Assembly (NCBI GenBank): GCA_008632985.1 | Contig: QPGO01000101.1 | Location: 310,001 to 332,024, forward strand | Direction: 5' to 3' | Origin: Psammoneis japonica | Taxonomy: Eukaryota | DNA length: 22,024 bases | Part shown: positions 1 through 22,024 of the stretch, piece after piece | Layout: each line of letters starts with the position of its first letter | How positions within the stretch are numbered: position 1 is the stretch's first letter | Position numbers and translations under genes: made by a program | Notes under the pieces: model-generated | What the model was told of the DNA's origin: nothing | Seen by the model: only the letters and a program-made list of their open reading frames with translations | Databases searched by the model: none

Positions 1-146
1 GATTGTCGTCAGGTGGTGTGTCGAGAGGAGTCGTGATGGAGTGCCGCTTTGTGTTTTTGTGCTGCGTCTGTGCAGGAATGTNGCGTGCTTGGCTCTCGTG
101 TAGTTTCCACACAAAAAGTGCACCAGGCAATCTCTGGACCGCCCTC
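1..146. mobile_element. Terminal fragment of a second copy of the Sola3-like element, running off the window's left edge
   Basis: 2-146 is the reverse complement of 244-389 and a direct match to 3915-4028. It ends in ...gccctc, immediately followed by an intact TTAA (147-150). Confidence 0.8.
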
Positions 147-1531
147 TTAATTGCCGAAGGCATGTCTGCCACGGCACACAAACACAACATCATCTTAAGT
201 GATGACTGCCAAAATCAACTTTTGGCGAAGACATGTGTGTCAAGAGGGCGGTCCAGAGATCGCCTGGTGCACTTTTTACACAGAAACTGCCAGAGAGCCA
301 ATCACGCACATTCCCACACAGACGCAGTGCAAAACAGAAAGCATGGCACTCCATCACGCGACCTCACGACGACACCACCTGACGACAATGCATCAAAATG
401 GCGTCGTCCGCATCTTTCTGCAGCTCCTCTTTCACTTGCCTGATTGCTCCAAAAGGGCCAGGGGAAGCCAACAAGCTTTCTCTTGCAATGGAGCAATGCA
501 GACAAAAGTTGTTTTTTGTTCCAAAATCTCAGAACACAGTGCAACCGATTGTCAAGGTGAACTTGCACGTTGGCGGCAACAACACCAGTTGATGTTCACT
601 CTAGAACAACAATGGAGACGTGACACCCCAACAAAATGAAGTCCACACCCCCATGACAAATTTCAAAGCCAGCTCTTCTTGTTGGCGTGCAATCTTTAGC
701 TGCTTTTTAGACTTGACAAAATGATCATCTGCCCCGGCTGTCACCCTCCAAGTTTGTTGCATTGGCTGACAAATTGGGCAAGCAAGCCACATGTTTCTAG
801 CTTGCAAACTGCCTTGCAGCCAAAAGAAGCAATCTAAACCTTCAGAACAGCCATGATGCACTGGTCTGCCGAATCAAACTCCACATCACCAAGTGGAGGC
901 GGGGAGAGCCATTGTCAAAAATGCACTGTGACGGATCTGAGCTCTTGAGAGCTTGTCCAGCTTTTGACACCACATGGCCCCAAATCACCACATTTGTCAT
1001 GAAGTCAGCCTGATGCTGTGTCTGTGACTTTGCCTCGTTTTGGAATTGCTGCGGCCATCGCATTGCAGAATTGACATTCTTGATGAGGAAAAGTGTTTCT
1101 GGGATGCCTTGCGACGATGGAGACCCTGCAGAACAAAAGAACAATGTAGAAAGAGACAACACATGCAAGTCAAACGGGCATTGATGTGTGAAGCCTCAAC
1201 AAAACACACAGCACAAATGGCGACACATGAGGTCGGTCGTGATGCAACAGAAGTGATGCTGTCAACGCGAACCTTCAGCAAGAATTTTCACCATCAGCTG
1301 CCCATGTGAGCCTGTGTGCTCTCGAGCTTGTCACATGCCTCATGCCATGACGTAAGATGTTCCGTTGAGAGCACACTGCAAAGTGCCTCAGAAACAACCG
1401 CATTTTTGAAATCGGCGAAACGCCATTGTCTGTGTCATTTTGCGTGTCATTTTGCGTCGCAAGCCAGAAAACACTCCCAAAAACTGTTCTGCAGGGCAAA
1501 ATGTGCTGAATCTACACAGATTTGGGTTGCA

Positions 1532-1633
1532 CCAGGCCACACAGAAAATGAACGGGCCGAGAACTGTGGTGCGCCCACTTGGTTAAGTGGGCGTGCCAGA
1601 GTTTTCGGCCCGTTCACTTTCTACGTGGCCTGG
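1532..1633. mobile_element. 102-bp hairpin MITE with a 2-bp TSD (ca, probably ex-TA; Tc1/mariner-like)
   Basis: 49-bp arms (1532-1580, 1585-1633) around a 4-nt loop ggtt. Flanked by ca/ca. The opposite palindrome arm (~2150-2165) shows the empty site ttg-ca-agg. Confidence 0.85.
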
Positions 1634-3342
1634 CAAGGACTGAGGCGAGCGCGCGGCCACACGAAGTTGTCAGTCCCGCCCACTCGTGACTCAGTGCATT
1701 TCCACGGTGAAAATTGCGCAGGAATCTGACGATGACAAAAACGGTCAGATGACTTCCACTGACTGCAATGTGAGCCGCACCTGACGTACATTCTTTGTTT
1801 GTTCACAGTTGAGTTGACCATTTCAGGCGTTGCATGCAGTTGCTTTGACAAATTGGAAGTCATCCGAGACAAAACACAAATCGCACGGAGTGCCGTGGAT
1901 TTGCACGCAATGCAGTGCTTGGCGTCATTTTGGTGAAATTCATCAAAGTGACTGCATCCAACGCTCAAAGGTGTTAATTCATGCACAAAAGAAGATGCAA
2001 TGCACATTGGGTGCAGTTGACATTGCAGCCAGTGGAAGTCATCTGACCGTTTTTGTCATCTTCGGATTCCTGCGCAATTTTCACCGCAGAAATGTGCTGA
2101 GTCACAAGTGGACGGGACTGACAACTTCGTGCAGCCGCGCGCTTGCCTCAGTCCTTGCAACCCAAATCTGTGTGGATTCAGCACATTTCGCCCTGTAGAA
2201 CAGTTTTTGGGAGTGTTTTCTGGCTCGCGGCTCAAAACAACACGCAAAATAACACAGACAATGGCGTTTCACCGATTTGAAAAATGCGATCGTCTCTGAG
2301 GTTGGAACCTGTGTGCTCTCAATGGAATTTGGTGCGTCACATCATAAGATGCGAGACAAGCTTGAGAACGCCCAGGTTCACATGGGCAGATCATGGTGAA
2401 ATTTTGAACTGAAGATTGGTGCTGACATCGCCGATTTTGTTGCATCAACACGCAACTCATGCATCACCATTCATGCTGTGCATTTCGTTGAGCACCCACA
2501 CGCTCACATTCTTTCAACGTGCACGTGTGTTGTCTTTCCTCATTGTTGTTTTGTCATGCAGGGTCTCCCTTGCCATGAGCCATCCCTGAGAGAGAAAAGC
2601 TTGCTTTGAATGTCACTTCTACCTTGCAACGGCCACGGCAGTCTGACGACAAGTCCAAGTCACATGTGCAGCATCAGGGTGACTTCACAACAAACACAGA
2701 AGCTTGGGTCTGTGGCTTCTGAAGATGTTCAAGCTCTTGGCAGCTCAGACTTGTCGTCGAGCAATTTTGCCGCGCATTTGACGTGCATCCAGAAGGTGAT
2801 GCGGAGTTTGACTTGGCAGGCCAGTGCATCATGGTGGTTCTAAAGGCATGGATTGATTCTTTTGGCTGCAAGGTGTTTTGCAGCCCAGAAACATGCAACT
2901 TGTTTGCCCCATTTGTCAGCCAATGCAACAAATTTAGAGGGCGAAGGACGGGACAAATGGGTCATTGTGTCAAGTCTCAAAAGTGGCTCAAGAGTTTCAG
3001 CCAACAAGAGCCATTGGCTTCACAATTTAACAAGTGAGTGCAGAGTGTGTGTGTTGGGGCACAACATCTCCATTGTTGTTCTAGAGTGAACAGCAAATGG
3101 CATTGATTTGGCTGACAGTGCAGCCAATGTGCGGGCGCACCTTGACAATCTGTTGCACTGCATTCTGAGATTGTGGAATGAAAAGAACAACTTCAGTTTA
3201 CATTGTTTCATCATGACAGAAGTGTGCGAGCTTTCCCTGGCCCTTTTGGAGCAATCGGGCAAGTGAAAGAGGAGCTGCAGACAGATGCAGACGATGCCAT
3301 TTTGATGCATGGTCGTCGCACGGTGTCGTCGTGAGTCGCTGA

Positions 3343-3906
3343 CAGGCTCATGGGCTCAGGGGGGAGCTGGGGCTCCCCAGTTTATTTTGTCTGGCGAGGT
3401 GGGTTGTGAGCCACTGGGGCACACCAAGTGCCACGTGCCGCACCACGCACTGTGCCAAGCAGCACGGACCACGCGACGAGCGCATGGTGCACAGTGCAGT
3501 GCACACAGTGCATGCAAATGAACCGCAATGGCAGATGCCATCCATTGCAAGCAGACACCATCAAATGAACACACCATGGAGCATGATGCGCCTGCTGCAG
3601 ATGAGTCTTTTCTCTCCTGAGGAACTTGTTCAATGAGAATCAAACAAGAGTTCTCAGACAAGATCACACTCTCTCTCCTTCTTGCATGCAACAAAAGGCC
3701 TGCCCAGGTGCCCAGCCAGAGCAGACTGCAGTTCAATGTGTGCAACAGATCGCATGATGATGGTCTGACCTGCACCGCAGGGTGTGATCCCCCCCAGGTT
3801 TAACAGGCAGCATGATGGCGCACTCCAAAAACTGGGCCCCTGCTTTTTTTGTCGGGGGGACTCCTCTTTTTCTCGCAAAGTGCTCCCCCCCAAACCCACA
3901 AGCCTG
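3343..3906. mobile_element. Non-autonomous hAT-like element, 564 bp
   Basis: Perfect 8-bp TSD gtcgctga (3335-3342, 3907-3914). 25-bp imperfect TIRs start CAGG (caggctcatgggctcaggggggagc vs caggcttgtgggtttgggggggagc). It interrupts the right arm of the palindrome and is absent from the left arm. Confidence 0.9.
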
Positions 3907-4260
3907 GTCGCTGATGGGCGTGTCATGCTTTCTGTTTTTGTGCTGCGTCTGTGTGGGAATGTGCGTGCTTGTCTCTTGTGTGGCTTCTGTGCAAAAAGTG
4001 TGCCAGGCTGTCTCCGGAGACTGCCCTCTCAATGTTTTGGCAATTTTGTTGGAAAACGAAAACATTTGTCTTACATCAGACACAATTTGTTGTGCTGTAC
4101 ATCCAACAGAATGCAACAAAATCCGTCAGCACAAGTCTGTGCTGAATGACTGGGCATGAGTTTCTGGAAAAAACAAATGGCAGAACCAAATTCCTCATGT
4201 GTGGAAAGGGGGGCAAGGCACTGAGGGTTTGTTGGATGACAGGGTTTGAGGTTGAGATGT

Positions 4261-4657
4261 GACAATCAAAGCAGGTTTGTGTGGGACCTTGCGCTGCCGC
4301 TGAGCTGTGACACTCCTGATGGTTTTTGGAATTGAGTCGCGTGTTGCGCACGTGCACTTCCCGTGATTTTGGTGAAATTTTGCGTCATTTCATGGCACAA
4401 TTGTTGGGCAATCCACTCAACAACTTTTGACGTTTTTTCTTCTGCACCATTCTCAAATGTCTTGAGAGCGGCACAGGGCAGGCAGGCCATCCCCAAAACC
4501 TCAAGTGTGAGCAGAGACAGATGCTCCACAAACTTGATTGTTTGCTTTGTGTTGAAGACAAACATGCCCATCAACCAGAGTGTGAACTTCAGAGCTTGTG
4601 CACAAAATTCCATGGGGCAAATGCCACAAACAGCCCAACCTGGGTCTGGAACATGTC
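4261..4657 (-). mobile_element. Degenerate copy of the ~395-bp GACG...CGTC MITE family
   Basis: Colinear with 16159-16548 (e.g. caacaacttttgac, cacaaacttg...gttgaagacaaa). Right end is ctggaacatgtc. Left end is eroded and no TSD is recognisable. Confidence 0.7.
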
Positions 4658-5094
4658 TTTTGTTGTTGATGACAAAGACAGCCAAATTTTGTCAAGTTGT
4701 GTGCTGAGCAAAAGGACATCGCCAAAGCACATGTTGAGCACAAATGACGTTGAACATTTTGTTGCTGAGTTTTACAATGTTTTTGTCCTGTTTGTCGCCA
4801 ATGATTTTTGCTTTGTCTTGTTTCCCTCTTTTCAAGACAAGCCATCAATCAAAACACTGTGTGTCCCAGAGAGTCACCTCAAATCTGTTGAAAATGTGTT
4901 GGCGGCAGTCCTTGGTTTGCTTGTGCATGTGTCACCTCACCTCACCAAACACAAAGCTGTGTGCAAAAGACATCTCCAATTGTGGCATGGCATGTGGTGC
5001 ATGACCGTTGCGGCACTGTGCATCATCGCGCATGATGCCAATTTGTTTGGGCATGAATGTCTGTGTCAAAAAATCTCAACGGACATCCAAAAAA

Positions 5095-5487
5095 TGTTGA
5101 ACCTGATGGTCTCAACAAAAACTCTGTTGAAACCACATGGTTTCAACAAAACTCTGTTGGCAGCCAAGAAAGTTTTGTTGAGGTTTTCTGTTGAAACCAG
5201 CAGTTTCAACAAAATGAGTTTTTGACAAAAAGTGCTGAAATTGTTGGAATGTTGAAAGTGACGTCATTGTTTGGAGATCGGTGCTTGTCAACATTGTGCC
5301 AACACACACAACAAACACTCCACTTTGATGAGTTGAAAGAACTTGTCAAAAAAACTGCTCACTGCCATGGCAACTTGCACAAAACAAACACCTTGTCTGA
5401 CGCGGAGTTCCGTGCACCACTCAGCGTGCAATGTCTGGCATCCACTCATTTTTCAACAAAATTTGTTCAAACCACATGGTCACAACA
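5095..5487. repeat. Cluster of ~24-bp palindromes tgttgaaacc...ggtttcaaca
   Basis: Copies at 5095-5117, 5125-5148, 5189-5211 and 5464-5487, plus half-sites in between. Confidence 0.7.
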
Positions 5488-5799
5488 AAAATCCGTTGAA
5501 ACTGAAAACATTCTGGGAAGCATGAACTCCTCTGGGGGGGCACCATGTGCAACACTTTTTTGTGTGTGTGCTCCATCATGTGTGAGTGTAAATTTGCAAT
5601 TTGCCAATTCCCTGCACATCCCCTCTCACAACTGTTGTGTCTTGTCACTGCGAGCGCAAGCTGCAGCGCATCTGCAGTGAGGGCCAAGGCTGCAGCAGAG
5701 CCGTGCAAGCTCAAAACACATGTGGTTGATTTGATGGTGTCATTTTGTTCTTTCCCTCTCTTGTGACAAGGGGGCACTTTGTGTTGATGTGCTGATGCT

Positions 5800-7480
5800 T
5801 CAACCATGCTCATCACCTGCAGTGAGTGGATGGTCATGGGGCTGCATGCACACCTGCCCAAAATGTTGACCCCATCCCCTGGGCCCTTTCAGGGGGCATT
5901 CCTTCCTGCAAAATCACCCTCATTTCCAGGGTTTCCCCAAAGAAGGTGAGTCAACTCCCCCTTGCTGCCTTGGCCACATTTTGGGGGATCCACAAATGTG
6001 CAACAACCACGCCGAGGGCTCAAAAATGCAAGCTTGCCAGCTCTGCCACAGACAGAGTGGGGCGCAATGATTGGCGCTTTGCCAGAGGCTTGGCATCTTC
6101 ACTCAAGGCCACAGTGGACACTGTGTCATCTGATGAGGTTGCTGCAGCACACTCTGGAACAGCAGCATCATGCATCATCTTGCTTTGGCCATTTCATGAC
6201 TGAGCATGCAGGTGCGCTGTCTCTCAGCCAATTTGTGTGCCTGGCGCAGTTCTTGATTTCTCTTGGGCAGAGATTCATTTGCACCAGAGCTGCAGTTGAG
6301 TTGACACCAGAGCTGCAATTGAAAGCACACAGTCAAAAAGATTTGTCACCTTGTCAACATCTTCACAAACCCACAAAGCTTTTCAAGAACATGTGTCATC
6401 TTCTCTGCAACAGCGTCATTTGCTGCCAGCACTGCTGCACTCACCTTGTTGGGCTTGTTGTTTTTGGGCTTCTTGTTTGACCACATCATGCAACAGCTTT
6501 CTGAGAATTGGGGCAACACAATGGAAAACAAGCCAGGATTTGACTGGCTTGCTCAGACCATCAAAACAGCCAGGGGCTGTGTGTGTCGGTGAGGGCATGG
6601 CGCTGCATCACTTCTCATGACCCGCGCTGGCTGGCACTGCAAAGAGTGCTCCATCTGTGGCGTGCAGAGAGATTCACATGCACAAGTGAAAATCTGGTCT
6701 GTCCTCTGCCTCATGGCATCTCTGCAAAAGTTTTTTTGTTTCCAAAATTGATGGCTTCTTTGCTGTGCGGTGCTTCTTTTGTGTCGACGGGTTCCAGTCC
6801 TGGGTGGGACTCCGTGTGACATTGGGCCCGCAGAATTCTGCGTGCGAGCTCCGCAGCAAATTTGCACTGCAATGAAAATGCACATGATTGCCAACAGAAA
6901 AAGAGGCAATTTTACAAACGTGTCTCCTCCTTCATGCACGCAGCACATCATTGACAGTTTGCTCGGGCATGTTCTTCAGACATCAAAGAACACACCCGGT
7001 GCATTTTCATTCTCACAAATGTTGAAAATAGAAAGCCTTTTGCTTTGCAAAACAGGGGGCACGAAACAATTTCGTAGAACATCACACGTAGAAATGCACA
7101 TGCGCGACATGCGACACGATCCAAAAAACTGTTGATGTCACAGTTCAGCAGCACGAGGTCCCACCTAGAGCTGGAATTCGTCTGTCTTCTGATGTCGCCA
7201 ATTGATGTGTCTTTGTTCCTGCATTTGCCATGTTTGTGGCTCACGCCACTGCTGCTGTTGCAACAAGGGCCTTTTTTTGCCCCAAGAGGACAGACAGGTC
7301 ATCAACAGAATTCCGCGTGGCAGCTCATCAAAAAAATTCTGAGTTTTTTTGGCATTGAACTTGTGCAGCAAGTCAATCACTCAGCCATCATCTCTTGCAA
7401 TGGCAGCATGACAAGTGCACAATGCACACTTTCATCAAACAATGTGGGCCCACAAACTCTCACTTGTTGTTGATTTGCCT
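5800..7480 (-). pseudogene. Possible decayed coding region of unknown product, interrupted by a MITE
   Basis: Protein-like minus-strand stretches (SWLVFHCVAPILRKLLHDVVKQE; ALGVVVAHLWIPQNVA) broken by TGA stops. No family recognised and boundaries are approximate. Confidence 0.25.
6786..7182 (+). mobile_element. 397-bp MITE, GACG...CGTC family, 4-bp TSD (Sola-like, tentative)
   Basis: TIRs gacgggttccagtcctgggtgggac / gtcccacctagagctggaattcgtc. TSD tgtc (6782-6785, 7183-7186). Colinear with 14204-14599. Confidence 0.9.
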
Positions 7481-8501: not shown

Positions 8502-8820
8502 GGCGGTGGACCGTTCGCAGCTGATGCGCCACTGACACCACGTCAATTGTCATCAAACCCATGGCATGTTGCTTGTCACCCTCTTCTTGGCACACATGTT
8601 CCTTTGAAATTGCGCACTCTTTGGCCACAATCCAGACAATCAACAACATCAACATGGGCAAATGTCTGGTGGGGCAATGGTCTGACATTGCCCACGAACT
8701 CGCGCGCGACATTCTTGCCCGACATGTCTGATTTTTATAAAATTTGGTTTAAATTTTTTTACACACGGTGTCAGAAATCTCACTTCATCATCCAATGTTT
8801 TTTGTCATGTGTCTCAAGAA

Positions 8821-9581
8821 AATGGAGTGGCGCACTTTCAAAAATTCGGTGCGCATGCCTGATCTGCACAAAATGTGCGTGCGCAAAAATGTGCTGCAAA
8901 ATTTGTAGAGATGTTTGTTTGAATTCACTTCACACACAAACATCACGGCAACAACGCCGCGACATCGGCAATGGACGCACACAACAACGACAGCGGACTG
9001 GGAGGTTGTGATGCACTGAGACAACAACTGACATGCAAGAAATGAGGTGTCAATGTCAAATGACAATGATCAAGTTGTTTTGGGAGCTGGTTGAGCCATT
9101 GGTGACGAAGGGTTTTTGGCACGCACAACTTGGTGCTGAAATCACGCAGAGGTTTTGGCCATGGTGGGACTGTTGTTTTTCACTTTTTTTGGGGTGTGTT
9201 TTGTGTTTTCTCGGTCGATCGCATTGATGGAGCACTGAAGTGAGCACGCGACAACAGATTTTGACGAAAAGTTGGATTTTCATTCATTGTGGAGGATTGG
9301 CACGGGGTTTTTAACACGGTGAAGCACGGGGGGACGATTTTTTCACCAGATTTGCAAGATCCTGCATCCCGCCCAATTTGCGCGCATGACATTGGTGGAT
9401 TGATGCATTTTTCACACGCAAAAAGCGCAACAACGTCAACACACCTGACATGACAGACTTCCCGTGCTGTTGTCGCAATGAAGTGAAATCTTGTTGTGTT
9501 CGGTGCGTGGAGTCTAGCACCATTTGTCCGCATGTGGACGAGTGCTGCGCACCGCAATTTTGGAAAGTGCGCCACTCCATT
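8821..9581. mobile_element. ~755-bp TIR element, superfamily unassigned
   Basis: ~35-bp inverted repeat aatggagtggcgcactttcaaaaattcggtgcgca (8821-8855) vs 9546-9581, with weak similarity extending ~130 bp inward. Exact ends and TSD are ambiguous. Confidence 0.7.
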
Positions 9582-10387
9582 CAAATGTGGCGACCATGCG
9601 GAGAATGTTCCCGACATTTTCAAGTGCAGCACTCATCCACTTTTCACTGTGCAACAATTCCCCTTTGTGACAGCCCCCGATTCACATTGCTTTCAAACCC
9701 TGCTTTAAATCTGACAAGCACACGGACAACATTCCCGCCATTTTACAGTGCAACACTTGGATGCTTTTCACATTCTACATTGCTGCAGCTCCCGAGCTGA
9801 GTGGATTTCCCAGTTGACATCAATGCCACAGTCATTTCCTGTCACACATTGGCAAACGCCACCGCCATTCTGCACGCGTCCTCGTTGCACCCTTGGTCGC
9901 TTCTGTGTGTTGTTGTTCACTCCTCCTCATCAAGACCCCATTTTTCCTCTTCTTCTTCCTCTTTGCTCCCTTGCTTGTCATTCCTTCCTTTGGCCTCCTC
10001 CTTGCTGTCACTCCAATCATTTTTTGGAGCAGCCCATCCACTCATGCTGTCCTTTTTTTCTTCTTTCTTTTCTGCAGGCACTGTGCATTGACTCTGCCGC
10101 AATCCACTCTCTCCTTCACCACAGCATCGCAGAGTTTGTCGCACTTGTCGATCTCATCCTGGTTCCATCCTTGATTTCGTTTTGCACCTTTCCCCAAGAA
10201 AGTGCACTTGGTGGCCACGGGTTGTTTCAGTGGTGCAGCCACGTGACCTTGTTCGAATTGCTCTTCGATCTCTGCCACCGACACGGCCGTTTCACAGCAG
10301 TTGTCATGCATCAGCCTGGCAAAAGCTTCTGTGCATGTTGTCAGCCAATCGCAGACACCTTGGCTGTCTGCTGTTTTAACATGGCAT

Positions 10388-10971
10388 GAGACGAAAATTG
10401 TTTGGAATTTTTTCTGGTGTGATTTCCACACGTTTCTACACAAAGCGATGGTTGCACTTCGGCTTTTCCCAGGATGCCATCAAATGCTGCGTTTCCTTCA
10501 ACCAAGTGTCCTGCATTCTCAATTGGTGTCTCCTTGACTTGCCTGTGGAAAGAAGCTGCAAGTTTCAAGATTGTGTCAATGAGATGTTCCTGTTGGCAAA
10601 AAAAAGGTCCTGTTTTTTCGCCCCAAGTTTTTGAATTAGATGCTCAGATGGGAAAAAGTGTCGAAAGGTGCAGTTTCTTTCACTCGGCAGGAAGCCAAGA
10701 CAGTGGAGAAAGTGTCTGCATGCTTGAACTCACAAGTGTTTTTGTCTTGGAAGTGCCTTTCATGGCCTTTCCAAGACGATGTAGAGAACGAGGCAACAAA
10801 TGAGCAATCGCCAAAACGGAATTTCCGTTGAGCGACACACTTGCAATCACGCGCATGCCAACCCATGTGATTCGCCAATGAGACACAATGCTTTTGTCCG
10901 ACGACGAATTCCTGATTCCCGTGATTTTCAATGAAAATGCGCGCGGAAACGATTTTCACAATTTTCGTCTC
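10388..10971. mobile_element. 584-bp MITE with GAG...CTC ends and a 4-bp TSD (Sola2-like, tentative)
   Basis: Perfect 14-bp TIR gagacgaaaattgt / acaattttcgtctc. TSD gcat (10384-10387) / gcac (10972-10975). Inserted in the accessory pseudogene. Confidence 0.8.
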
Positions 10972-11059
10972 GCACCACCTTGAAGTGCTCTGTTCCTGCC
11001 GCTGGGGGGGCAGCAATTTTCCAAGAACCAGAAGTGCGTTTGAGGCAACGCAGCCATTT

Positions 11060-11126
11060 CTGAGCAAGAATCAATTTGTGAGAACACTGGCCCATCTCAT
11101 CCACGCACAGCCCTGACAGTGCTTGC
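11060..11126 (-). other. 67-bp spliceosomal intron with donor GCAAGC (probably ex-GTAAGT)
   Basis: Minus strand: G|gcaagc...ctcac...ctcag|AA. Splicing gives ...RKKLV-E-MAALPQTHFWFLEN. Confidence 0.6.
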
Positions 11127-12129
11127 CAACCAACTTCTTTCTAAAAACCTCCTGCCTGTTGTTTCTTCTTCTGTCAAGTCTTTTCCGCACCTTCTCCTTG
11201 TTCGCTTCCCACCAAACTGCAGAGTCACTCGCGTCCACATTGAGGTGTTTGCAAACCTTTTTCTGCATTTTGCTCCCGAACGCCAACTCAACATCGTCGT
11301 GCATCACGAATTTTGTCTTTGGGTGCACAGCCATTGCAGCGCAGTCGGTCATCTGGCCGTCCACAAACTTTCTCCTCACCGCCTCCGAGCTGACAACGGA
11401 CACTCCCGCAATCTCCACATCGTGTGATCTTGTCTCTGCCATGTCATGGGTGCCAACTGCAATGAAGGTCACAAGACATGCGTGAGCTTGCCAACCCATT
11501 TGTGCAATGATGCCGCAACGCACTCACCTGGTGAATCGTTTCGTGCCGACATGTTTGCTCACCCACTCTCCAGTGTGTTTTGTGTCAACGAAATTCCTCC
11601 CTCTGTGCCAAACCCAGTCCTGAGTGTGCGCCCGCCAGCACGCCCGTTGGCCCTGTTTGAAAACTCCCTTTTGTTGCATGCCAAATTTTTCAAAGCACTC
11701 ACTGTCAAGCATCAATTGATGAATTTTACATTCCTTTTGAATGGCATGTTTTGTCGTTGTCAGCCTCACATCATCCATTCACTGTGCATTTCATGATCCA
11801 TGCAAAGAACAATGGCACTCCCCACTGTTGCATGCCACAATTTTCAAATCTCCAGCTAATTTTTTTTTCGTCCAGATTTCAACAGAAGCAAGGGCTGCAG
11901 TCCGGACACTTCTTTTTACTTTTTTGTCTGGCGTGCGACACCTCGCTGTGCCGTCTTGGTTGCCATGCTCTGAGCTGCCCCGATCTTGTTCTCGCCCGGC
12001 CACAAAGAGCAGAGCACCGTTTTGACATGCAGCATTTCTCAACTCACTGGTCCGTTGCATGTTTCCATGATGTGGCATGCACTGTGTTGATGTCACACTG
12101 TCCAGGCCATCAGGCTCATCTCTTCACCC

Positions 12130-13592
12130 TCAGTCATTGCCCAGCCTTGCTCTCACACTTCTGTTTTCCTCATTGTTGACTGCCTCTTCTTCTCTCGCCG
12201 TCTCGCACGATTCGCACAAGCACTCCACAACTTCATGCAATCCACCGTTGTGACCATGTCTGGCTGAATGCACTCCTGTGCAAAATGTCCGCAATCCCAA
12301 GAGCACTTTCTTGCACACTGCTGTGTCTCCGCTCACCAGCGGGGGGCAAGTTCCCTCTGCGCAAGGCCAGAAGGCTCTGTCGCCGTTGTCGTGTTCTTCC
12401 AGATGAATCACGTTAACACGGGTTTCTCCTCCTGGTCTCACCTGACCATCTCTTCTGGGCGGCAGAGCACACACAATGAGCGGGTGGCGGCATTCTTTGT
12501 CTCCTTCAAGGCAAGCCAACACAATTGCGCAAGGCAGCTGCTGCGAAACGCACACCAGTGTCTCCAGCTCCAAGTCCACCAAATCTGTCGTCAACGTCAC
12601 TTTGTCCATGCACGGGTTGCAACGGATCTTTTCCTTTTTTATCCACCCTTTCACAAATGGTTGCCAGCTGTGCCAGTTGAATCTGTCACCATCCATGTGT
12701 CCCACCGCGACACAACAATTCAAAGCTCTGCGGTCGACGCAAGTTCTGTTTTTATCCAGTCTTTCATGCAAACTCATCATCTGAAATTCTCCCTCAATGT
12801 GCGCCTCTCGCAATTCACGCAATGGCCTTTTCATCTGGTTTTTCCGCATTGAAGTGCACCTGGGATTGCCAAAGTTGCGCCTCCACATTCTCAACGTGTT
12901 GTCTTGCTTTGCTGCTTCTCTCAAAGCATTGAGCACGTGTGGCAACATCTGTTTGTGACCCTGCAGCTCATGTGAGAAAACACACATTCCAGGATGCCTT
13001 TGGTTGATGCAAGGCATCCAAGGCTGCCCAGTGTGTTGTGCTGTTGGCAACTGGAACACAACATGTTTGATCAAAGTGCCGATTCTCTGTTGATGGATTG
13101 TGATGTGTGGCAGCTGCGGCGCCACTTCGACTCTGCAGGGTCGCTGCATCAAAATTTTGTGTGGGGCCAACTCATCTTCCAAAATTCTCCCTCAATGTGC
13201 GCCTCTCGCAATTCACGCAACGGCCTTTTCATCTGGTTTTTCCGCACTGAAGTGCACCTGGGATTGCCAAAGTCGCGCCTCCACATTCTCAACGTGTTGT
13301 CTTGCTTTGCTGCTTCTCTCAAAGCATTGAGCACGTGTGGCAACATCTGTTTGTGATCCTGCAGCTCATGTGAGAAAACACACATTCCAGGACGCCTTTG
13401 GTTGACACAAGGCATCCAAGGCTGCCCAGTGCACTGTGCTGTTGGCAACTGGAACACAACATGTTTGATCAAAGCGCCGATTCTCTGTTGATGGATTGCG
13501 ATGTGTGGCAGCTGTGGCGCCACTTCGACTCTGCAGGGTCGCTGCATCGAAATTTCATGTGGGGCTGCACCCGGGGATTCCAGTCGCACCAT
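12130..13592 (-). pseudogene. Unknown ~350-aa protein gene disrupted by an internal tandem duplication
   Basis: Collapsing the duplication merges ORFs 13149-13592 and 12130-13182 into one Tyr-free, protein-like frame. It is divergent from the gene at 14056. Confidence 0.5.
12771..13566. repeat. Tandem duplication, 2 x 398 bp
   Basis: 12771-13168 and 13169-13566 are colinear with a constant 398-bp offset. Differences are almost all transitions. Confidence 0.95.
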
Positions 13593-14203
13593 CCATTCAT
13601 CATGTGTCGCTGAAAGTGAGAATGAAATTTTGATGTTTGTCTTTCAACTTGTCGATTCGACTGCACACAACCAGGACACAAATCGACACACTGTCATCAA
13701 AAAAGAATTGATTTTTTGTCAAATTTTCTGCACTGTCACCCAAACAAGAGAGTGATTCTGTGCAGCTCAATTTTCATTGCTGAGGACAATTCTTTTGTGT
13801 TTTTTTGTGGTCCCAGGTGATGCTCCGGGAACACGCCCACGTGTTCACAATGTCACACAACCTCTTTGCATCTGTGTTGCTGTTTTCTTCTGCTTGGTTG
13901 CAACCCACTCTGCAACAAACATCCATTTTCTCCTGCCATGTCGTTGTCACATTCCAGCTGTCACCACATTTGTCATCTGCCACCCACTCCAACAGGACTT
14001 GATCGCCGAAACAACAAACACTCTCGGCAACGTGCGCATTTCCAACCCGGTCAGCATGTCAGCAAGAGGACCTTGACATGCAAGAAGCACCAATCATTTG
14101 TTCCGCACTCTTGATGCTGATGGATTTCTCAACACACTTCCAACGGGACAAGCTTTGGTCATCCGGCCAAGAGCGCTGCATGACTGTTTGATGGTGCACA
14201 ACA

Positions 14204-14599
14204 GACGGGTTCCAGCCCCAGGTGGGACTTTTTGTGACATTGGGCCCGCAGAATTCTGCGTGCGAGCTCCGCAGTAAAATCATCAAGCAATGGACACATG
14301 AATGATCGCCAACAGAAAAAGAGGCAATTTTGCGAACGCATCTCCTCCTCCACACTTGAAGCACATTCTTTGCAGCATGCCCGGGCATGTTCTTTAGACA
14401 TCAAAGAATGTGCCCAGCGCATTTTTGTTGGCACAAGTGCAGATGACAGAAAGCCTTTGGCTTCGCAAAACAGGCAGTGTGGAACAATTTTTCACAACAG
14501 AACACGCAGAAATGCACGTGCAAAACACACGACGGATGACAAAAAATGATTGTGTCACAGCTCAGCAGTGCGAGGTCCCACCTGGAGCTGGAACACGTC
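14204..14599 (+). mobile_element. 396-bp MITE, GACG...CGTC family
   Basis: TIRs gacgggttccag / ctggaacacgtc. TSD aaca (14200-14203, 14600-14603). Excision restores the host frame (VHN-NKHL). Confidence 0.92.
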
Positions 14600-15523
14600 A
14601 ACAACAAACATCTGTCATCTGCGCTGAGGGAGGTTGCAGAGGAATTGTCGTCGCAGATGAGCCGACGAAGACAGGCTGATGCAAGGAGAAAATCTCTTGC
14701 TGGGAAAAGGAAGTGCACGCAAGACGATGACTCGCTGGAAAAGAGCGCACCTGCTGACGAGGTTCATGGCAATTCTGTTGGTTCCCGTGTGGAGGGACTT
14801 TTGATTGAATTGACAAAGGACATGTCAGCAGACTTTTGACTTTGCTCACACCGCTTTGGAGGTGACGAGCCACTGTTTGCCGATCAAGCAGTGTTGGACA
14901 ACCATTGCTTCGGATGTCGCGACGAATCATCCGACTCACCCAATGTCTGCACCACCGGGAATGACGTTGTCAACAACAGTGTGTTGGTTGTGGGCCTTGT
15001 CTTCAGCGACGGGACAACTGACGCATCCTCCCAGGAGCGCAGAGACACCACAGCATGCAAGGCACTGGTCAAAAACGGATTCAACGTCCACACTGTTGAC
15101 TGCCATCAAACAGTTGCTTCGAATCCGAATCACGTGGTTGCCGATGTGCTTGCTCTCAATCGTTGTGAAAATTGGGCTTCCAAGGAATGTGCCCACAACT
15201 CAATGTTGATGGACATTGGGCTCAAATCTCACTTCAACGACAGAATCTTGACAGACTCGTTTTTCAGTCAATCGTTGACTCGCTTCCGTCAAAAGCTGTC
15301 TGATGTTGGCAATGCATTTCTGCCTGTCGATGCGACGGTGGCCCGTTGCCTTCATGAGAGCTGGGCTGTGGTTGGCAAAGTGTGGATTGTCAGGTGCCTG
15401 TGAAATGATCAGTTGGAGGAAGTGCCTCTTTTCCATCCATTTGCAGTTGCACACCTGCGCCGTGACGGAAAGCAGGTGGGCACTCATCCTTCTTGTGAAG
15501 ATTGTGGAGCAACATTGTTGGAG

Positions 15524-15602
15524 GTGCGTGTTTCATTTAGATTTTTTGTGCTGGCTTCTCGTTTTGGTTGTCGCTCACTTCTTGGATTTTGTCAATCTCT
15601 AG
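15524..15602 (+). other. 79-bp spliceosomal intron
   Basis: GAG|gtgcgt...T-rich...ctcac...ctctag|ATC. Splicing links ORF 15413 to the frame of ORF 15645 and everything downstream. Confidence 0.7.
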
Positions 15603-16158
15603 ATCAAGGACTTTGTCTCAGACAAAACACAGGAGCCAGTTGTTTTGTGCCCACATGGCGTTGAAAAAATCAACTGCATTGCTCTCACTCCACGAAGAAG
15701 CAACCGCGTCACCACCACTTGTGAGGTTGCAAACTCGTTGCAGGCAGTCGATGGTGTTGACGGAAAGGTTTGCGCAAGATGTTCCTTTGAACATCTGGAA
15801 AGCTGTGCAATGTGTCCCATGTGCTGTCAGATGCTGCTGTGAAAGGCTTGGAACACCAAGTCTCTTGCAGACCGGGGCCACAAGCTAGACGCAGCTTTAG
15901 ATGCCATTGATGCAAACTGTGGTCACATGGGCAGAAGGAGCAAGCGCAAGACTGGGGAAATCAGCAAGGCCGACCTTCCAAAGGAAAAAAAATTCAGTTG
16001 TTGGGTTGAACAGTGCCAGCCGCTGGACACCCCGAATGGGCAAGATGACAAGCATTGGGGAACAACCTCACTTTTCCCAACAGACAAGAAGAGAAGTCAC
16101 AAGCCCAGTTGTTCCCCGATTTCGATCTTGCCAATCTGCAAAAGATCAAAACTTCATG

Positions 16159-16548
16159 GACGCGTTCCAGGTCTAGGTGGGACCTCGCACTGCTGAACTG
16201 TGACATCGACAGTTTTTTGAATCACGTCGCATGTCGCACACGTAGATTTCTACGTGATTTTTTCGATGTTTTGTGTCATTTTACGGTGCACTTGTTGAGC
16301 GATCCGTCCAACAACTTTTGACATTTTTTGTTGCAGCGCGATTCTACAATGTCTTAAGAATCGCGCAGGGCAGGCGCATTTGCAAAAACGTTGAGTGGCA
16401 AGAGGCACAATTGCACCACAAACTTGGCAGTTTGTTTGATGTTGAAGACAAATGTGTCCATCAATTAAATTCTCATGCTACGGAGCTCGCACGTAGAATT
16501 CCACGGGCCCAATGTCACACGGAGTCCCACCTGGGACTGGAACCCGTC
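16159..16548 (-). mobile_element. 390-bp MITE, GACG...CGTC family (least mutated copy)
   Basis: TIRs gacgcgttccaggtctaggtgggac / gtcccacctgggactggaacccgtc. TSD catg (16155-16158, 16549-16552). Excision restores KLHG-KDSH. Confidence 0.92.
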
Positions 16549-18893
16549 CATGGAAAAGACAGCCATTGTCGAGAAAAAGCGTGGATGCCAGATTCAAGTG
16601 CATTTCCGTTTGCACGTGAGCTGGCACGCGGCAACTGGGTTGGAGTCTGCAAAGAAACTGGCATCGAATCTCGGTGGCGATGTTCGTGTGATGCCAAATT
16701 CGTGCAATCATCCTCATTCTTGTTGTGCCCAAAGGATCCAATCATCGTCAACAAACACAATGTTGCTGGAGCTGACACTCCTGCAGACAGCAAACCCATT
16801 TTTCAAATGCTTCAATTGCCACCGGAGATTGCAAATGAGGACCTTTTGTCTCAAACTGCAAGTGTCGTCGAGGATGGATCATGCACTGGACTCGGCGATG
16901 AGTTTGTCACCCTTTCAAAAGCAGACAAGCGCAGAAAGTTTTGCTCCATGGACGGCGGGGTCAATGCAGCTGGTGGGAAATGGAGCAGAAGCTGTGGTGT
17001 GGGAGTGGCAATGCCGGGATGCCCACCGGGAGCAACCGACCGCACATCTCCAAGGTTGCGCAGGTGGACACTCCAGCTCTCTGCAATGGTGGTGCATGGC
17101 GTTTGCCGTGGGGTGCTGGATGGAACACAACGATCGCAACAGGGTGCAACAAGCTCCCTCCGACGAAGGGTTGCCTCAAAATGTCAAAGATGGCTGAACT
17201 GCCCAGATGATCTGTGGGCCATTCTAAGAGAGCTCCGCACACACACCTCCTCAATTGGAGCAGCGACTTGGCATTCAGATGCGAGCAATGGGAAGGACAT
17301 TGATCACGATCACATCACACTTGCCTCACATTTGGTTGAGGACTGGTCCATGTTTCCATCCCAAAAAAATGTCAACAAGCCATTGGAGAATTGTGTGCCT
17401 GCAAGAAACAGCTGCTTTGCTCACTTGTTGCACACAAGGTCGATCATTGACAGCCAATTGAAGAAGCTTGAGTTGCACGTTGATTGTCCTTGTGCGGAGT
17501 CTTTGATTGCAGCACTGAAGGAACATTCCGACACCATTTGCCTGCACACACTCAGCAACCAGGAAGAAACAGCCAAGGCTGCAGAAAAGATTCTGTCTTT
17601 GGCAGAAACAAATGTCACATCTGACCACAGCAAAGGAAGGTGCATCAAGATGAAGGAGGGTGAGACTCAAACAACAGTGCTCGGGTGCATCGTGTGGCTG
17701 TGGATTCTGTTTTGTGAGCGCTGAGACGGAGCTGTTTGCCTCTGACATGTTGCAGAGTGCAAGGGGTTGGTTTGCAGGGAATGCAGTGGAACACCTCTGC
17801 CAGCTCGGTCTGTGTCAACTGCTGTCTCCTTGCCAGCTTGGGAGAGAATGCTCAAGTCTTTGACTGAACTGAGGGGCAAGATGTTCAAGTGCATCGCACG
17901 ATTGGTGAAAGAAGCAAAATGTGGTGGTGACCTCAGCAAGGCACACTGTTCCTCCCATCCCAGGTGGCAGAATGTCAGCAAGAGCCTGTGTGACGGGACA
18001 CCCGAAACAGAAGATTGTCCACATCTGTTTGTCAGTTTTTTGGAAGAACAAGACAGGGTGCTGCGCAATCCAAACTCGATGGAAGAAGCAAAGGAAACGG
18101 CTCGTCAGTTGACAATGGATGGGAAAAAAACAAGGAAAGCAGTGCAGCTTGGAAGCGCAAGAGGAAATTTGTGCATCCAATCTGGTGCCTGCCTTGGTGA
18201 TTGTCCAGCTGAGAATGCCACATTTGCTGCTTTAAGTGATGATGATAAAAACGGATTCTATCGGCGCCTGGTTGACACGGTGGTGGAGAGTTCTCCCGTT
18301 GAACATTCTGGTGGAATTGAGTTAGACGAGGCACAGAAGACATGTGAGGCAGCGCGGCGACTGACGCGCAACAACAAAATGTCAGTGACCATGGCATGCA
18401 TGGACCAGCCATCATGTCACCTGCACCGTCCAAGGAAACATGGTTTGAAAGAGGACTTCATTTTCCTCCACAATGACGGCACAGTCTTTTTGCTGATGAG
18501 ACACAAGGAATTGTGCGCCACTGCTGCCAAGACACACGGATTCAAACATCAGATCAAATTTTTCTCAGTCGACAAATGACACGGACTGGAGGATTTTGCT
18601 GCAAAATGCAGTCACACAACCGACCCGGAGAGTGTGTGGTCACATTCAAACCTTGTTGAATTGTGCCAGAAAACGTTGACAGAATTCCGGAAAATCATGT
18701 GAGGAGACTTGCTTTGTTGCAATGCATTGTCAAACTTCACATGCACTCCTGCCTCCCGAGTGCAAGCCACCATTTAAAAAAAGCTCAGGCCACTCATTCT
18801 TCATGTCGAGGACAAACAAAATCTTGTTGTCAGACGTCTCTTGATCGGACATGGAGCCGGACAGGGACAAATTGGTCACATTTTGACTTTCCT

Positions 18894-21800
18894 CTAAATT
18901 GTTTTCAACAGCTTTTTTTCTTTTCTGGCCTTTCTTTTGTTTTTTGCCCCGGTCAACAAAAGCTGTCTTGGGCAATGCAACACGCCCATTCCGCCGCCAA
19001 CAAGCACGTTCTTCTGACAATGCCCAAAGGTGCGTTTGGGTGATGTGCCCTCCATTCGCCAATGCTGAAACAAACCGTTCTTGCTCGTTTTTGTTTCCAT
19101 GGCGTTTTGCTTCAGACAAGTTCTCCCAAAAGCAACAACTTCTTTTTTGTTGTCACTCAGAATGAAACCACACAGTTGCATTGGAAACAAGCTGTCGGTT
19201 CCATCGTCATTTCTGCATTTGACACGTGCAAAGTCATGCCATCACCCGCCCTTGCGGCAATTTGGGTGCGCCCAAAAGCGCAGCTTGTGTTCGGCCTACA
19301 GATTTGACTTGGAATGCACAATGACGTGCCTGCGCCGGATTCCCCACTGGTTGCGACGGCACAAAAAATCAACAATGTCTGGCTCCAGATGAGTGCTTTG
19401 TTCCCTTTTCATTTCCAAGGTGCCGGTGCACTTGCAGTGTGTTTTTTTGACTCAGTCGACTGTGAACATGGCGCGACCCAGGTCGTGGTGCAATGATGCT
19501 GCCACTGACAAATCCTGAGATGCATGTGGATGGACAATCAAATTGTTGGCTCTCTCCAAAAGACTCTGCTTGTGCAGTCGGCTTGCAAGTTGACGTGTGA
19601 ACTCTTCTTTGCCTTGCAATGCTTGGCAGGTCCAACTTGGAAGCTTTGCCCATTTCTTTGGACCAGACTTGCCGGTGGCGGCATCCCATCCAGAAAACAC
19701 ACCCAACTGACAAAGAGCGGTGATCAAGCGCAGCAGGTTGTGGAACTTGGATGTTTTCCATCCATGCGTGCCTTCACCGTGATTGATCATGCTGCGCAGC
19801 TCAAACATCAGAGGTGCCAGGCAACATTTGATGTTGGCTCGGTTGGCGTGTGAGTGCAGGGAAGAACTGCAGCTGCAGAAGGAGTGGAGCAACAACAATT
19901 TGTTGAGCAACAGCAACAAGTGTTCCACATCGTCACAGTCCATTGAACAACAAGCCGGCTCCATGTCGTTGCACAGGCTGTTTGGCCTTTGGCGGAATGC
20001 AAGAGGCAACTCCTTTTCAATTTCTGAACAAACGAACGGCGGGTCGTGAGAATTTGCCTTTGTGTGAAGGGACTGGCGTCAATCCGCGCAGCATCTAAAA
20101 ATCTCAGAAACGGAGGAATCGGCATGGTTTGGGATGCAGAGCTGACGATCCAGGTTGACATTTCTTGTTTGCATCCACACAGTGTTGTGACAAATGTGAG
20201 CTTGAGCCATTGTCAGCTGCGTCATGCAACGATGTGTGTGCATGAGCCCGCGACGGTGATGTTGATCCTCCAGATGTTCATTGTGGACAGGGTCATTGTG
20301 GTTGCATTCTTCGTCAGCACAAGGCTTGCCAACCAAGGATGTGGAGGCCTGTGGTGGTTGATCCCCAGGGGAAACTTCCTCCTCGTCACTCTCTTCCTTG
20401 TCATCTTGCAGATTTGGCTGCTGTTCATCTGAGTCATGTGCGGACTCATCGTCATCATCAAGCAAATTGTTGTGGTTGTCGGAAACGGGCTCACCTTCTT
20501 TGTGTGCACAACCATCATTGTCTTCTTCTTTGCGCTCACATTCTTCTTCGTGCTCACATTCTGAAGGCTGATCATCGAAATTAGAAGCACCTTTTTTCTT
20601 TGTCTTGTCAAAATCAGGATGGCAACGAAGACGGAGCATGCTCTGTCCCTCCTCGGTCTGACCCATCAGTGCCAGCGCAAACAGCTTTCCCATCTTTTGG
20701 TCGCAGGTCAAACCAGACAAGGCACAAAATCCATTTCGCAAGACAACCGGTGGAAAGTTAGATCTCTGACCTGGTCTGCACGACTGAGATCCAAGTGTGC
20801 GGTTTGCCAAAGCAATCAGTTGGGATTGGGAGGAATCGGGCAAATCGTCGAGAATGACAGAGAGCGTCTGAGGGACCATGCCACCTTGGAACATGTGCAT
20901 TGGATCAGGGGGCGCAAACCCAAACACACCCTGACGATTGTCTCCCATCCAAAGATGAAAGAATGAGTTGTCAGCCGTGTGTTGGCCAAACACCTTGTGA
21001 AGCATGGTGGAACAAATGTTCATGCGCCGGATGACTGCGCTGTGTGCCTTGGAACGGATTGAATCGGCTTTCGTCTCAGACATCACTGTGTCGATTTGTG
21101 ATTCGACACAAAGATGCCATGGACTGTTGGTGGAACTGGGTGGTGGTCCAAGTGCTGCAACAGTCAAGTGCTCCATCAGTTCTTGGGAAAAGCGCCTGCA
21201 GCAATGTGAAGGTTCATCGCTGTTGGTCCACGAAGTGTGACAGGCATGACTGATGTGGCGGGAGTTTTCGCGACCAGAAACACGGCCGGTTGCTTGTGCG
21301 GCGTTGACAGCACTGCCCAACAATGTCATGCTGTGGACAACAATGCACTCACAACAACGCTGGTCACCGAGTCGGGCTCGGCAGATGGGAGGTGATTCTT
21401 GTGCTTGAATTGCAGACGCCAGAAGAACAGACAAAATTTGGTGGCAATTTCTGACGTTCATCCCGAAAACGGGATTCTTTGTTTTGCAACCTGTGTGTTT
21501 TGGAACAAAACCAAGAGGACGCCATGCTTCAAAACGACGGTGGGCACATGACTTGATGAGAGTTGCAGAGAAAACAAATGGCTCCATTGAATGAGGTGCG
21601 ACCTGTCCTTTCCCAGTTTTGTCGGTGCAATGCAAAATGAACACATGAAAGGAACCGGGGACAGCAGGAAAAATGCAGCCACAACATCAGTTGCTGCAAG
21701 TTTCACCATCCTTCATTTTGGCATCATCACAAAGTTTCCAGTTGCCATTCTCGTCCAACATGGGTTCACTGGAGATCACCTGAGACCAGCGTGAATTGGG

Positions 21801-22024
21801 AGGAACATCAAGATTTGAAAGTTTGGCAAAAAGGGGATCGTCGAACAGATCCTGCAGTTGGAGGGAAAAGTTGCACACAGGGATGCCGGGAGAGAGCTCC
21901 TGAGGCAGGTTGTTCTTGAGTTGGTTGGCAGTGGAGACAGACTCGAGAGGAGTGTGCTGCGGCACCGGGGGCACAACGCCAGGCAACATTGACTTGAGCT
22001 TGGACAGGAAAGTTTGAGAAGAGG
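18894..22024 (-). pseudogene. Plavaka-type (CACTA-related) transposase pseudogene; 5' end lies outside the window
   Basis: Motifs in order: TDKT, EP, AWRPLGFVP, RNCHQIL, PPDPMHMFQGG, acidic insert, GWKTSKFH..L......LG...GWD...G....K.WAK.P...CQ, and C-terminal AHPNCRKGG*WHDF (~19230-19270). Stops and frameshifts are present. Confidence 0.8.

Follow-up and report, generated by a model that had tools for sequence, protein, structure and literature searches.

Sequence context of the few TpA steps remaining in a 22-kb TpA-depleted, transposon-like tract

Why has a 22-kb piece of DNA lost nearly all of its TpA steps, and what do the few that remain tell about the process that removed the others? 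These questions are raised by positions 310,001 to 332,024 of contig QPGO01000101.1, a stretch of 22,024 nt that was analyzed here as a whole and is referred to as the window. An inspection of its letters alone (the original prediction) had counted about 87 remaining TpA sites by hand and proposed that sites of the form RTAY (R, purine; Y, pyrimidine) had been erased, and YTAR sites spared, by a strand-symmetric and enzyme-like preference whose signature would identify the enzyme. The results described below indicate that the window is probably eukaryotic transposon-derived junk, hypermutated almost to completion by a TpA-specific A:T-to-G:C process acting on DNA, of the kind reported in the alga Bigelowiella natans, and that its preference for neighboring bases extends one base further out than the hand count had suggested. 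The tract under study is the following:

1 to 22024, no strand assigned: TpA-depleted, CpA+TpG-enriched tract (hypermutated cluster), with no recognizable housekeeping gene and a TA observed/expected ratio (o/e) of 0.061.

Only 87 TpA dinucleotides were found in the window against 1,437.5 expected from its base composition (about 49% G+C, with a single N at position 82); that is, approximately 94% of the TA steps are gone. The TA count of 200 mononucleotide shuffles averaged 1,434 (standard deviation 30.8) and had a minimum of 1,362. The loss was accompanied by an excess of CA (2,318; o/e 1.71) and TG (2,297; o/e 1.64), and CG was also scarce (789; o/e 0.60). Among the dinucleotides ending in A, TA alone was depleted (AA, o/e 1.30; CA, 1.71; GA, 0.99), and the surplus of CA+TG, about 1,865, approximately equaled the deficits of TA plus CG, about 1,876. 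The depletion was window-wide, since each of the 22 one-kb bins contained 0–9 TA and no normal region was found inside the window. With rho calculated in Karlin's strand-symmetrized form, from which the formula of the preprint on B. natans (an image there) may differ, rho(TpA) was ≤0.43 in 22 of 22 bins and rho(CpA+TpG) was also ≥1.52 in 20 of 22, the two remaining bins scoring 1.50 and 1.51. The window therefore passes the cluster thresholds of that preprint in 20 of 22 bins, and its TpA threshold in all of them.

The direction of the change was read from repeated sequences inside the window and from a decayed open reading frame (ORF):

46 to 4033, no strand assigned: large degenerate palindrome with arms at about 46–1792 and 1999–4033, 72–91% complementary; source of the copy-versus-copy spectra.
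16159 to 16559, minus strand: least-eroded copy of a very-high-copy repeat family of about 400 bp, with 11 TA between 16174 and 16494.
4272 to 4652, 6775 to 7182 and 14204 to 14599: other copies of the same family, making four in the window together with 16159–16559.
12768 to 13565, plus strand: tandem duplication of two units of about 400 nt, 95% identical, whose differences are mainly CG↔TG and CA↔TG.
20079 to 21644, minus strand: decayed transposase-like ORF of 521 aa, with 0 Tyr, 6.1% His and 5.2% Cys; outgroup test for TAY→TGY/CAY.

When repeat copies were compared, the dinucleotide change seen most often was the double change CA↔TG, with 57 cases in one comparison and 61 in the 2,733 aligned columns of a second. 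About 15 of these 61 were estimated to derive from CpG decay, considering the columns with retained (58) and half-lost (84) CpG, and the remaining doubles imply an ancestral TA that was hit independently on opposite strands. In the alignment of the four copies of the high-copy family, TA of the 16159–16559 copy was found opposite both CA and TG (e.g., GTAA against GCAA, GCAA and ATGA). The same direction was observed in the ORF at 20079–21644, which lacks Tyr entirely, versus 2.0–3.5% Tyr in its distant relatives P0003–P0005. The three columns with Tyr in four to five of five relatives were all Cys in the ORF, encoded by T|TGC, T|TGC and T|TGT. By comparison, the 19 metagenomic loci that encode relatives of this ORF showed an ordinary TA o/e, between 0.35 and 0.65. 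As a separate observation, the CpG o/e of 0.60 and the 84 CpG-type differences between repeat copies (C/T before G, 44; A/G after C, 40) show a second, cytosine-directed decay of the same DNA and suggest CpG methylation of these repeats.

The bases adjoining the remaining TA sites were then compared. The hand tally proved to be exact: YTAR was found 42 times, i.e., in about half of the 87 sites, followed by YTAY (24), RTAR (19) and RTAY (2). Individually, the tetramers were TTAA (15), TTAC (10), TTAG (10), GTAG (9), CTAA (9), CTAC (9) and CTAG (8), with ATAA (5), GTAA (4), TTAT (4), GTAC (2), ATAG (1) and CTAT (1) being rarer, and ATAT, ATAC and GTAT absent, as had also been noted. Both RTAY sites are GTAC, at the places given in the original prediction, and, counting the base 3′ of the adenine as +1 and the second base out as +2, both carry A at +2:

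1786 to 1789, no strand assigned: RTAY site, GTAC, with A at +2.
4097 to 4100, no strand assigned: RTAY site, GTAC, with A at +2.

To normalize these counts, three proxies stood in for the NTAN spectrum of the ancestor: the expectation of a first-order Markov model of the present flanks; the number of Y-R steps of any kind (TA+CA+TG+CG) between those flanks, a measure that is invariant under central transitions; and the NTAN spectrum of the 19 related metagenomic loci. The expected numbers of RTAY were 18.1, 23.6 and 27.0, respectively, versus the 2 observed, and those of YTAR were 25.7, 18.6 and 14.1, versus 42. The skew among classes gave chi-square values of 24.8, 49.5 and 78.7 on 3 degrees of freedom (df), with p = 1.7e-5, 1e-10 and 5.8e-17. 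In the related loci RTAY was the commonest TA class and YTAR the rarest, so that normalization sharpens the contrast. Uniform survival after normalization, the outcome that the original prediction had named as contrary to it, was thus not obtained with any of the three normalizers. The CA↔TG doubles with conserved flanks (n = 36) were distributed as R..Y 16, Y..Y 10, Y..R 7 and R..R 3, with model expectations of 14.0, 8.5, 4.9 and 8.5 in the same class order (p = 0.17). The predominance of R..Y among them indicates that RTAY sites existed ancestrally and have since been erased.

A half-site model, in which a TA is lost if the adenine of either strand is hit and the hazard is set by the base 3′ of that adenine, described the tetramer counts well. 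The four-parameter Poisson fit gave hazards of 2.98 for T, 1.72 for C, 0.87 for G and 0.72 for A (residual deviance 14.2 on 12 df, p = 0.29), and uniform loss was rejected with a likelihood ratio (LR) of 54–88 on 3 df, depending on the assumed shape of the ancestor. Plus-strand and minus-strand half-sites were alike (p = 0.66 at +1 and p = 0.89 at +2). The order of loss is therefore TAT > TAC > TAG ≈ TAA.

A stronger effect was observed at +2. This position was occupied by A in 112 of the 174 half-sites, versus a fraction of 0.26–0.27 in both baselines, and these half-sites included TAAA (44), TAGA (43) and TACA (23). Outside the listed repeats, A was found at +2 in 64 of 88 half-sites. The 12-mer contexts of the remaining TA were unique in 86 of 87 cases, so the effect is not driven by repeated motifs. 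The sites with zero, one and two half-sites carrying A at +2 numbered 11, 40 and 36, against 11.0, 39.9 and 36.0 expected under independence. In a joint model both positions were significant, with an LR of 96–107 for +2 given +1 and of 43–70 for +1 given +2 (each on 3 df), and +2 matters more than +1. The extra hazards relative to A, with their bootstrap intervals, were at +1 1.97 (1.43–2.64) for T, 0.97 (0.52–1.34) for C and 0.09 (−0.34 to 0.42) for G, and at +2 1.41 (1.02–1.94) for C, 1.13 (0.71–1.69) for G and 2.18 (1.69–2.84) for T. The number of TA per available CA+TG fell from 0.074 in TAGA and 0.055 in TAAA down to 0.002 in TACC and TATG, a 37-fold range. At least one TARA half-site was present in 71 of the 87 sites, and the full palindrome TYTARA accounted for 16 of 87, versus 1.4 expected. 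The spared motif is TARA for each half-site and TYTARA for the full palindrome, of which one example is given here:

600 to 605, no strand assigned: TCTAGA, an example of TYTARA, the fully refractory palindrome form.

The strand-symmetric, enzyme-like preference put forward from the hand count is therefore upheld in its symmetry, in its persistence after normalization and in the multiplicative half-site fit, and it has a precedent in the TpA mutator of B. natans; however, the contrast between YTAR and RTAY is only half of the signature, +2 being the stronger part, and calling the remaining sites survivors is an assumption. Two smaller tendencies were also seen: A or T was present at +3 in 127 of 174 half-sites, versus about 58% in relatives, and TACG, with 10 cases where about 7 were expected, was relatively spared, in contrast to TACC (1) and TACT (2).

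The process itself has already been described. In mutation-accumulation lines of B. natans, foreign DNA undergoes hypermutation from TpA to TpG/CpA (Mettrop et al., bioRxiv 10.64898/2026.01.13.699255). According to the main text of that preprint, 231 of 302 nuclear mutations lay in two regions, one an integrated nucleocytoplasmic large DNA virus (NCLDV) region and the other derived from a virophage; 230 of these 231 were A>G or T>C, all 230 on TpA, at rates about 1000-fold above background, and only some lines were affected. The B. natans genome was also reported to contain 124 TpA-depleted clusters and 324 low-TpA coding sequences enriched in DDE endonuclease and reverse transcriptase domains, and an ADAT2 homologue was proposed as the enzyme (bioRxiv 10.64898/2026.01.13.699255). 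The window resembles this system, as presented in the main text, in the exclusive change of TA to TG/CA, in the loss of TpA with gain of CpA+TpG over consecutive 1-kb windows, in the enrichment of transposon-type genes among the depleted sequences and in the many ORFs that cannot be annotated. It differs in its depth, with TA making up 0.40% of dinucleotides versus 3.3% in the NCLDV region and 6.0% genome-wide there, and in its target, which is transposon-like and repetitive and for which viral relatives were not found in viral contigs. The window is probably a further instance of this recently described process, near completion on transposon-like repeats and with a context fingerprint that can be tested directly.

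The main text of the preprint, its supplementary mutation table excluded, contains no analysis of neighboring bases, the words context, flank, trinucleotide, tetranucleotide and logo occurring 0 times in it, and nothing else was found on a TA→CA/TG process in the literature beyond that one preprint. A second candidate report was discarded, since its accessible text concerns TA target-site duplications and TCG hypermutation (PMC12730594). The mutator process is therefore already known, and the signature at ±1 and ±2 appears to be new, subject to the supplementary table and figures of the preprint. Such TpA hypermutation represents a newly reported eukaryotic genome defense whose direction is opposite to that of repeat-induced point mutation (RIP). 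As RIP is described for ascomycetes in the sources used, both hypermutate repeated or foreign DNA through transitions only, prefer a particular dinucleotide and leave behind diverged copies and decayed ORFs. RIP, however, changes C to T at CpA and thereby enriches TpA, whereas the window loses TpA and gains CpA/TpG; and RIP makes stop codons, which TA>CA/TG cannot do, so that ORFs stay open. Fungal RIP was ruled out, because the values of TpA (o/e 0.061), CpA (1.71) and TpG (1.64) are the reverse of those it produces.

The pattern would most likely be explained by an enzyme that deaminates the adenine of 5′-TA on either strand. Inosine would pair with C, and a hit on the plus-strand A would give TG and a hit on the minus-strand A would give CA. 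Each TA would carry two independent half-site hazards, governed by the pair of bases that follows the target A (in the order T > C > G ≈ A at +1, and raised by any base other than A at +2), and TATB and TACB (B, any base but A) would be lost fastest while TARA would be refractory. A TA would persist, or linger after ordinary C>T regain at CA/TG, mainly where both half-sites are refractory, which is the case in YTAR and more fully in TYTARA. We infer that the target is DNA rather than RNA, that the process is the one acting in B. natans and that it may serve in genome defense.

An alternative that retains the same context-dependent loss places the modification on the thymine: TET/JBP-type oxidation to 5-hydroxymethyluracil (5hmU) or 5-formyluracil (5fU) would lead to mispairing with G and to T>C, and the signature would read V-R-T-A favored (V, any base but T) and T-Y-T-A refractory. 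Judged from sequence alone, a T>C change on one strand looks the same as A>G on its complement, and 5fU is mutagenic toward T>C. Dinoflagellate TET/JBP enzymes have also been reported to make 5hmU that silences transposons. This evidence, however, is not tied to the genome under study, and the authors of the preprint prefer adenine deamination and found an ADAT2 homologue (bioRxiv 10.64898/2026.01.13.699255). The thymine route is considered unlikely, although worth keeping in view.

With TAY and RTA as fast half-sites, the products should also be biased: RTAR would end mostly as RCAR and YTAY mostly as YTGY. The RCAR/RTGR ratio was 1.73 in the window versus 1.09 in relatives, and the YCAY/YTGY ratio was 0.71 versus 1.02. 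When grouped by the bases at +1 and +2, the TG:CA ratio was lowered with AA (0.48 versus 0.85 in relatives) and GA (0.91 versus 1.40) and raised with TG (1.33 versus 0.74), TC and CG; from these shifts, the +2 effect is assigned to the strand that carries the target adenine.

A number of points weigh against the reading given above. The imbalance of CA minus TG predicted from the survivor-fitted hazards correlated with that observed at ±1 with r = 0.84 over 16 contexts, but these are reverse-complement pairs and the p-value is inflated. For +2, the product balance and the survivor ratio were related over 15 contexts with a Spearman coefficient of −0.49 (p = 0.066) and a Pearson coefficient of −0.56 (p = 0.03), so that the support from product bias is modest. 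The density of TA was overdispersed among the kb bins (p = 0.006), as a result of pooling elements of different ages; the context pattern was present both in the eight TA-richest and in the 14 TA-poorest bins. All three ancestral normalizers are proxies for a true ancestor or an unmutated master copy, and the relatives behind the third are proteins 23–39% identical, from other organisms and from one element family only. Adenine deamination is a presumed chemistry, and the mutator enzyme is not encoded in the window. Finally, the 30 single TA↔CA/TG differences between repeat copies are close to the approximately 24 estimated from background if columns with CA or TG change at the transition rates of other contexts (about 6% between copies). 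It follows that many of the extant TA may have been regained, with gain and loss in balance. In that case the counts represent gain divided by loss rather than exponential survival, and the numerical hazards change; their absolute values are model-dependent. This calls for caution, as near saturation the residual sites mirror that balance and not pure survival.

The extreme form of this objection attributes the skew to regain instead of loss, with ordinary or methylation-driven C>T at CA/TG recreating TA preferentially in CARA/TGRA. The number of single differences just mentioned would agree with it, as would the second, cytosine-directed process seen in the 84 CpG-type differences and the CG o/e of 0.60. 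By contrast, TA per CA+TG precursor spans 37-fold, a range that precursor abundance cannot give; the balance between TG and CA products, in which the extant TA play no part, showed the same tendencies at ±1 and +2 relative to the control loci; and half-site independence and strand symmetry are predictions of a two-strand loss hazard. The qualitative conclusion of context-dependent loss stands on the first two of these grounds, and regain as the source of the skew is regarded as distinctly improbable.

Biased mismatch repair, specific for T:G and always restoring C:G in a TpA/TpG setting, would also be strand-symmetric and context-dependent, as observed. The very-short-patch (VSP) repair of E. 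coli is held to deplete CTAG and to enrich CCAG/CTGG; as in the window, a word that contains TA changes with a T>C bias and its CA/TG derivatives become commoner. That effect is mild, limited to one word and tied to Dcm, whereas here every TA context has been erased, to 6% overall, and we know of no VSP-type effect approaching such a depletion. Moreover, the main text of the preprint describes rates in B. natans about 1000-fold above background, confined to certain regions and to some lines, which would be hard to reach through the correction of replication errors (bioRxiv 10.64898/2026.01.13.699255). This explanation is very unlikely.

Editing of element transcripts from A to I by an ADAR-like enzyme, fixed through reverse transcription, was also considered. 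ADAR and APOBEC systems resemble the proposed process in that deaminases hypermutate foreign or repetitive nucleic acid with a bias in context. ADARs act on double-stranded RNA, which the inverted repeats of the window could form, and they tolerate A as well as U upstream, whereas AA was enriched in the window (o/e 1.30), not depleted. APOBEC enzymes convert C to U, and neither group gives a heritable, strand-symmetric, TA-only signature in DNA. CA and TG were equal in number and interleaved in nearly random order (runs test, z = −1.87), with a slight excess of variance in bins of 150–300 nt (p about 0.01) and none at ≥600 nt; strand-tract models, namely in vitro conversion and one-strand RNA editing, were rejected because of this interleaving. 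No reverse transcriptase domain was found in the 109 ORFs searched, and the one identifiable element is DNA-transposon-like. ADARs are stated to favor U upstream of the edited A, but the hypermutated NCLDV region of B. natans is described in the main text as transcriptionally silent and single-copy (bioRxiv 10.64898/2026.01.13.699255). ADAR hyper-editing via an RNA intermediate was rejected on account of the missing strand tracts, the AA excess and the lack of a reverse transcriptase domain, and the RNA route as a whole is extremely improbable.

It is hardly credible that the pattern is an artifact (of base-calling at modified bases, which can mislead some sequencing platforms, or of conversion during library preparation) or the outcome of selection for TAA/TAG stops, even though NTAR contains TAA and TAG and YTAR has one of them on both strands, given that the eight longest listed contig pieces of sequencing run X1 were identical to the window at about 52–73x word depth, that the CA/TG products are finely interleaved, that TGA closes every one of the 21 ORFs with 150 codons or more, for which stop-codon selection was rejected, and that A at +2 has no stop-codon rationale.

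The expectation that the signature would identify the enzyme has so far not been borne out. In tRNA, U33 precedes A34, a parallel to the requirement for T-A, and the ADAT anticodons are AGC, ACG, AAU, AAG, AGG, AGA, AGU and AAC. To our knowledge no natural ADAT tRNA substrate has U at +1, whereas TAT is the most erased context in the window. Conversely, ADAT enzymes naturally act on the U-A-G-A of tRNA-Ser(AGA), whereas no context in the window is spared more than TAGA; this counts against adenine deamination by an enzyme of this family, as does the DNA preference described next. The 5′ T before the target A, as in the ADAT2/TadA signature, was found in the window, where TA alone is depleted; the 3′ context of ADAT2/TadA substrates was not, the order being TAT > TAC > TAG ≈ TAA, with TAGA and TAAA most spared. 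The ADAT2/ADAT3 (TadA) family does include adenine deaminases with activity shown on DNA, such as BjADAT2 of amphioxus (PMC10354150). On DNA in E. coli, this enzyme is described as preferring adenine in GAA and cytosine in TCG, not TA (PMC10354150), and no other natural ADAT2 is known to us whose context on DNA adenines has been measured. The known enzymes are therefore unmatched, BjADAT2 because of its preference for GAA and ADAR because of the enrichment of AA, and the fingerprint already argues that the known DNA preference of the candidate family does not fit.

A more far-reaching suggestion, which is possible but still doubtful, is that the remaining TA were left by a eukaryotic DNA editor that reads sequence, with the preference 5′-T-A-(T>C>G≈A)-(not A), to which TYTARA is nearly immune and which corresponds to no characterized deaminase (ADAT2 on DNA, GAA; ADAR; TadA, UACG). 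If true, the pattern would point to an enzyme not recognized so far, which either deaminates adenine in DNA or modifies thymine, or else to a mark that protects the adenines of TARA; and if, in addition, the window is not from B. natans, a “reverse-RIP” genome immunity would be more widespread and near-complete on transposons. A four-base fingerprint per strand makes the search for the enzyme testable, both with the 231 published de novo mutations and with defined good and bad oligonucleotide substrates. It may also improve the detection and annotation of decayed foreign DNA, for which TGY/CAY at Tyr positions, ORFs ending only in TGA and residual TARA are diagnostic.

The coding content of the window was also analyzed. 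A total of 110 stop-to-stop ORFs of at least 90 aa were found, and none of the 21 with at least 150 codons closes with TAA or TAG; both features are explained because TA→CA/TG cannot make an in-frame stop. Pfam gave no match at E ≤ 0.01 for 109 of the 110 ORFs, the search excluding only the ORF at 3–440 that spans the N, and none for the seven long ORFs. Relatives of the ORF at 20079–21644 were 31–51% identical and included a hypothetical protein of Geosiphon pyriformis and metagenomic proteins. In the ESM Atlas, the nearest eukaryotic clusters of the relative P0003 were annotated as Plavaka (score 0.96), and 38% of cluster members carry Plavaka. No Pfam match to Plavaka (PF18759) was obtained for the ORF or for nine relatives, and PF18759 was unmatched even at E ≤ 5 for six members of set A1; the Plavaka assignment is therefore a lead, unconfirmed by Pfam. 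The second long ORF, at 16258–17721, had no relatives at E ≤ 0.01. Regarding a viral origin, an exact 39-mer from the window gave 0 matches in viral_contigs, and among 53 pattern matches to the 20079–21644 protein family in viral contigs 0 were confirmed as relatives. In summary of its origin, one ORF belongs to a transposase-like eukaryotic family, some parts are very-high-copy repeats and the rest has no identifiable origin.

Run X1, the one public run in which the window was found, covers the single-copy parts with exact contigs. Over the family of about 400 bp, the summed word depth in run X1 was approximately 34,000–122,000 (121,919 in the bin of 16159–16559) versus about 52–73 in single-copy parts, where the eight longest listed pieces showed 0 differing letters. 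Related copies in the same run varied at 514 transition places versus 76 transversion places. The exact contigs, the repeat depth and the excess of transitions together indicate that the sequence is real, repetitive, eukaryote-like junk and not a base-calling artifact. The N at position 82 coincides with the place where three run X1 contigs omit one base (position 83) and is probably an assembly ambiguity.

Related copies of 2257–2809, 8821–9583 and 14479–14599 were also present in contigs of run X2, from the same sample. The differences from the window to these copies were C>T 31 and G>A 16 versus A>G 6 and T>C 4, and their flanks were TA-rich, which implies that less-mutated or unmutated versions exist in that sample. 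P0001 and P0002, the closest relatives of the ORF at 20079–21644 (about 50% identity), were poor in Tyr (1.1% and 1.3%, versus 2.0–3.5% in the more distant relatives); P0001 was also rich in His and Cys and had His or Cys at two of the Tyr columns. The source genomes of both proteins may undergo the same TpA hypermutation.

Additionally, the 16159–16559 copy, with its 11 TA in 320 nt, looks the youngest of its family; a CACGTAGA/TCTACGTG motif recurs in it and could represent the terminal inverted repeat of an element similar to a miniature inverted-repeat transposable element (MITE). The palindrome at 46–4033 has nested inverted repeats, including a near-perfect 49-nt hairpin at 1532–1633. 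Lastly, the AT skew was steadily negative (about −0.15 to −0.17) over 9001–14000 and the GC skew reached −0.21 at 11–13 kb, despite which the counts of CA and TG were balanced across 9001–14000; such an asymmetry between the strands has no connection with the TpA process.

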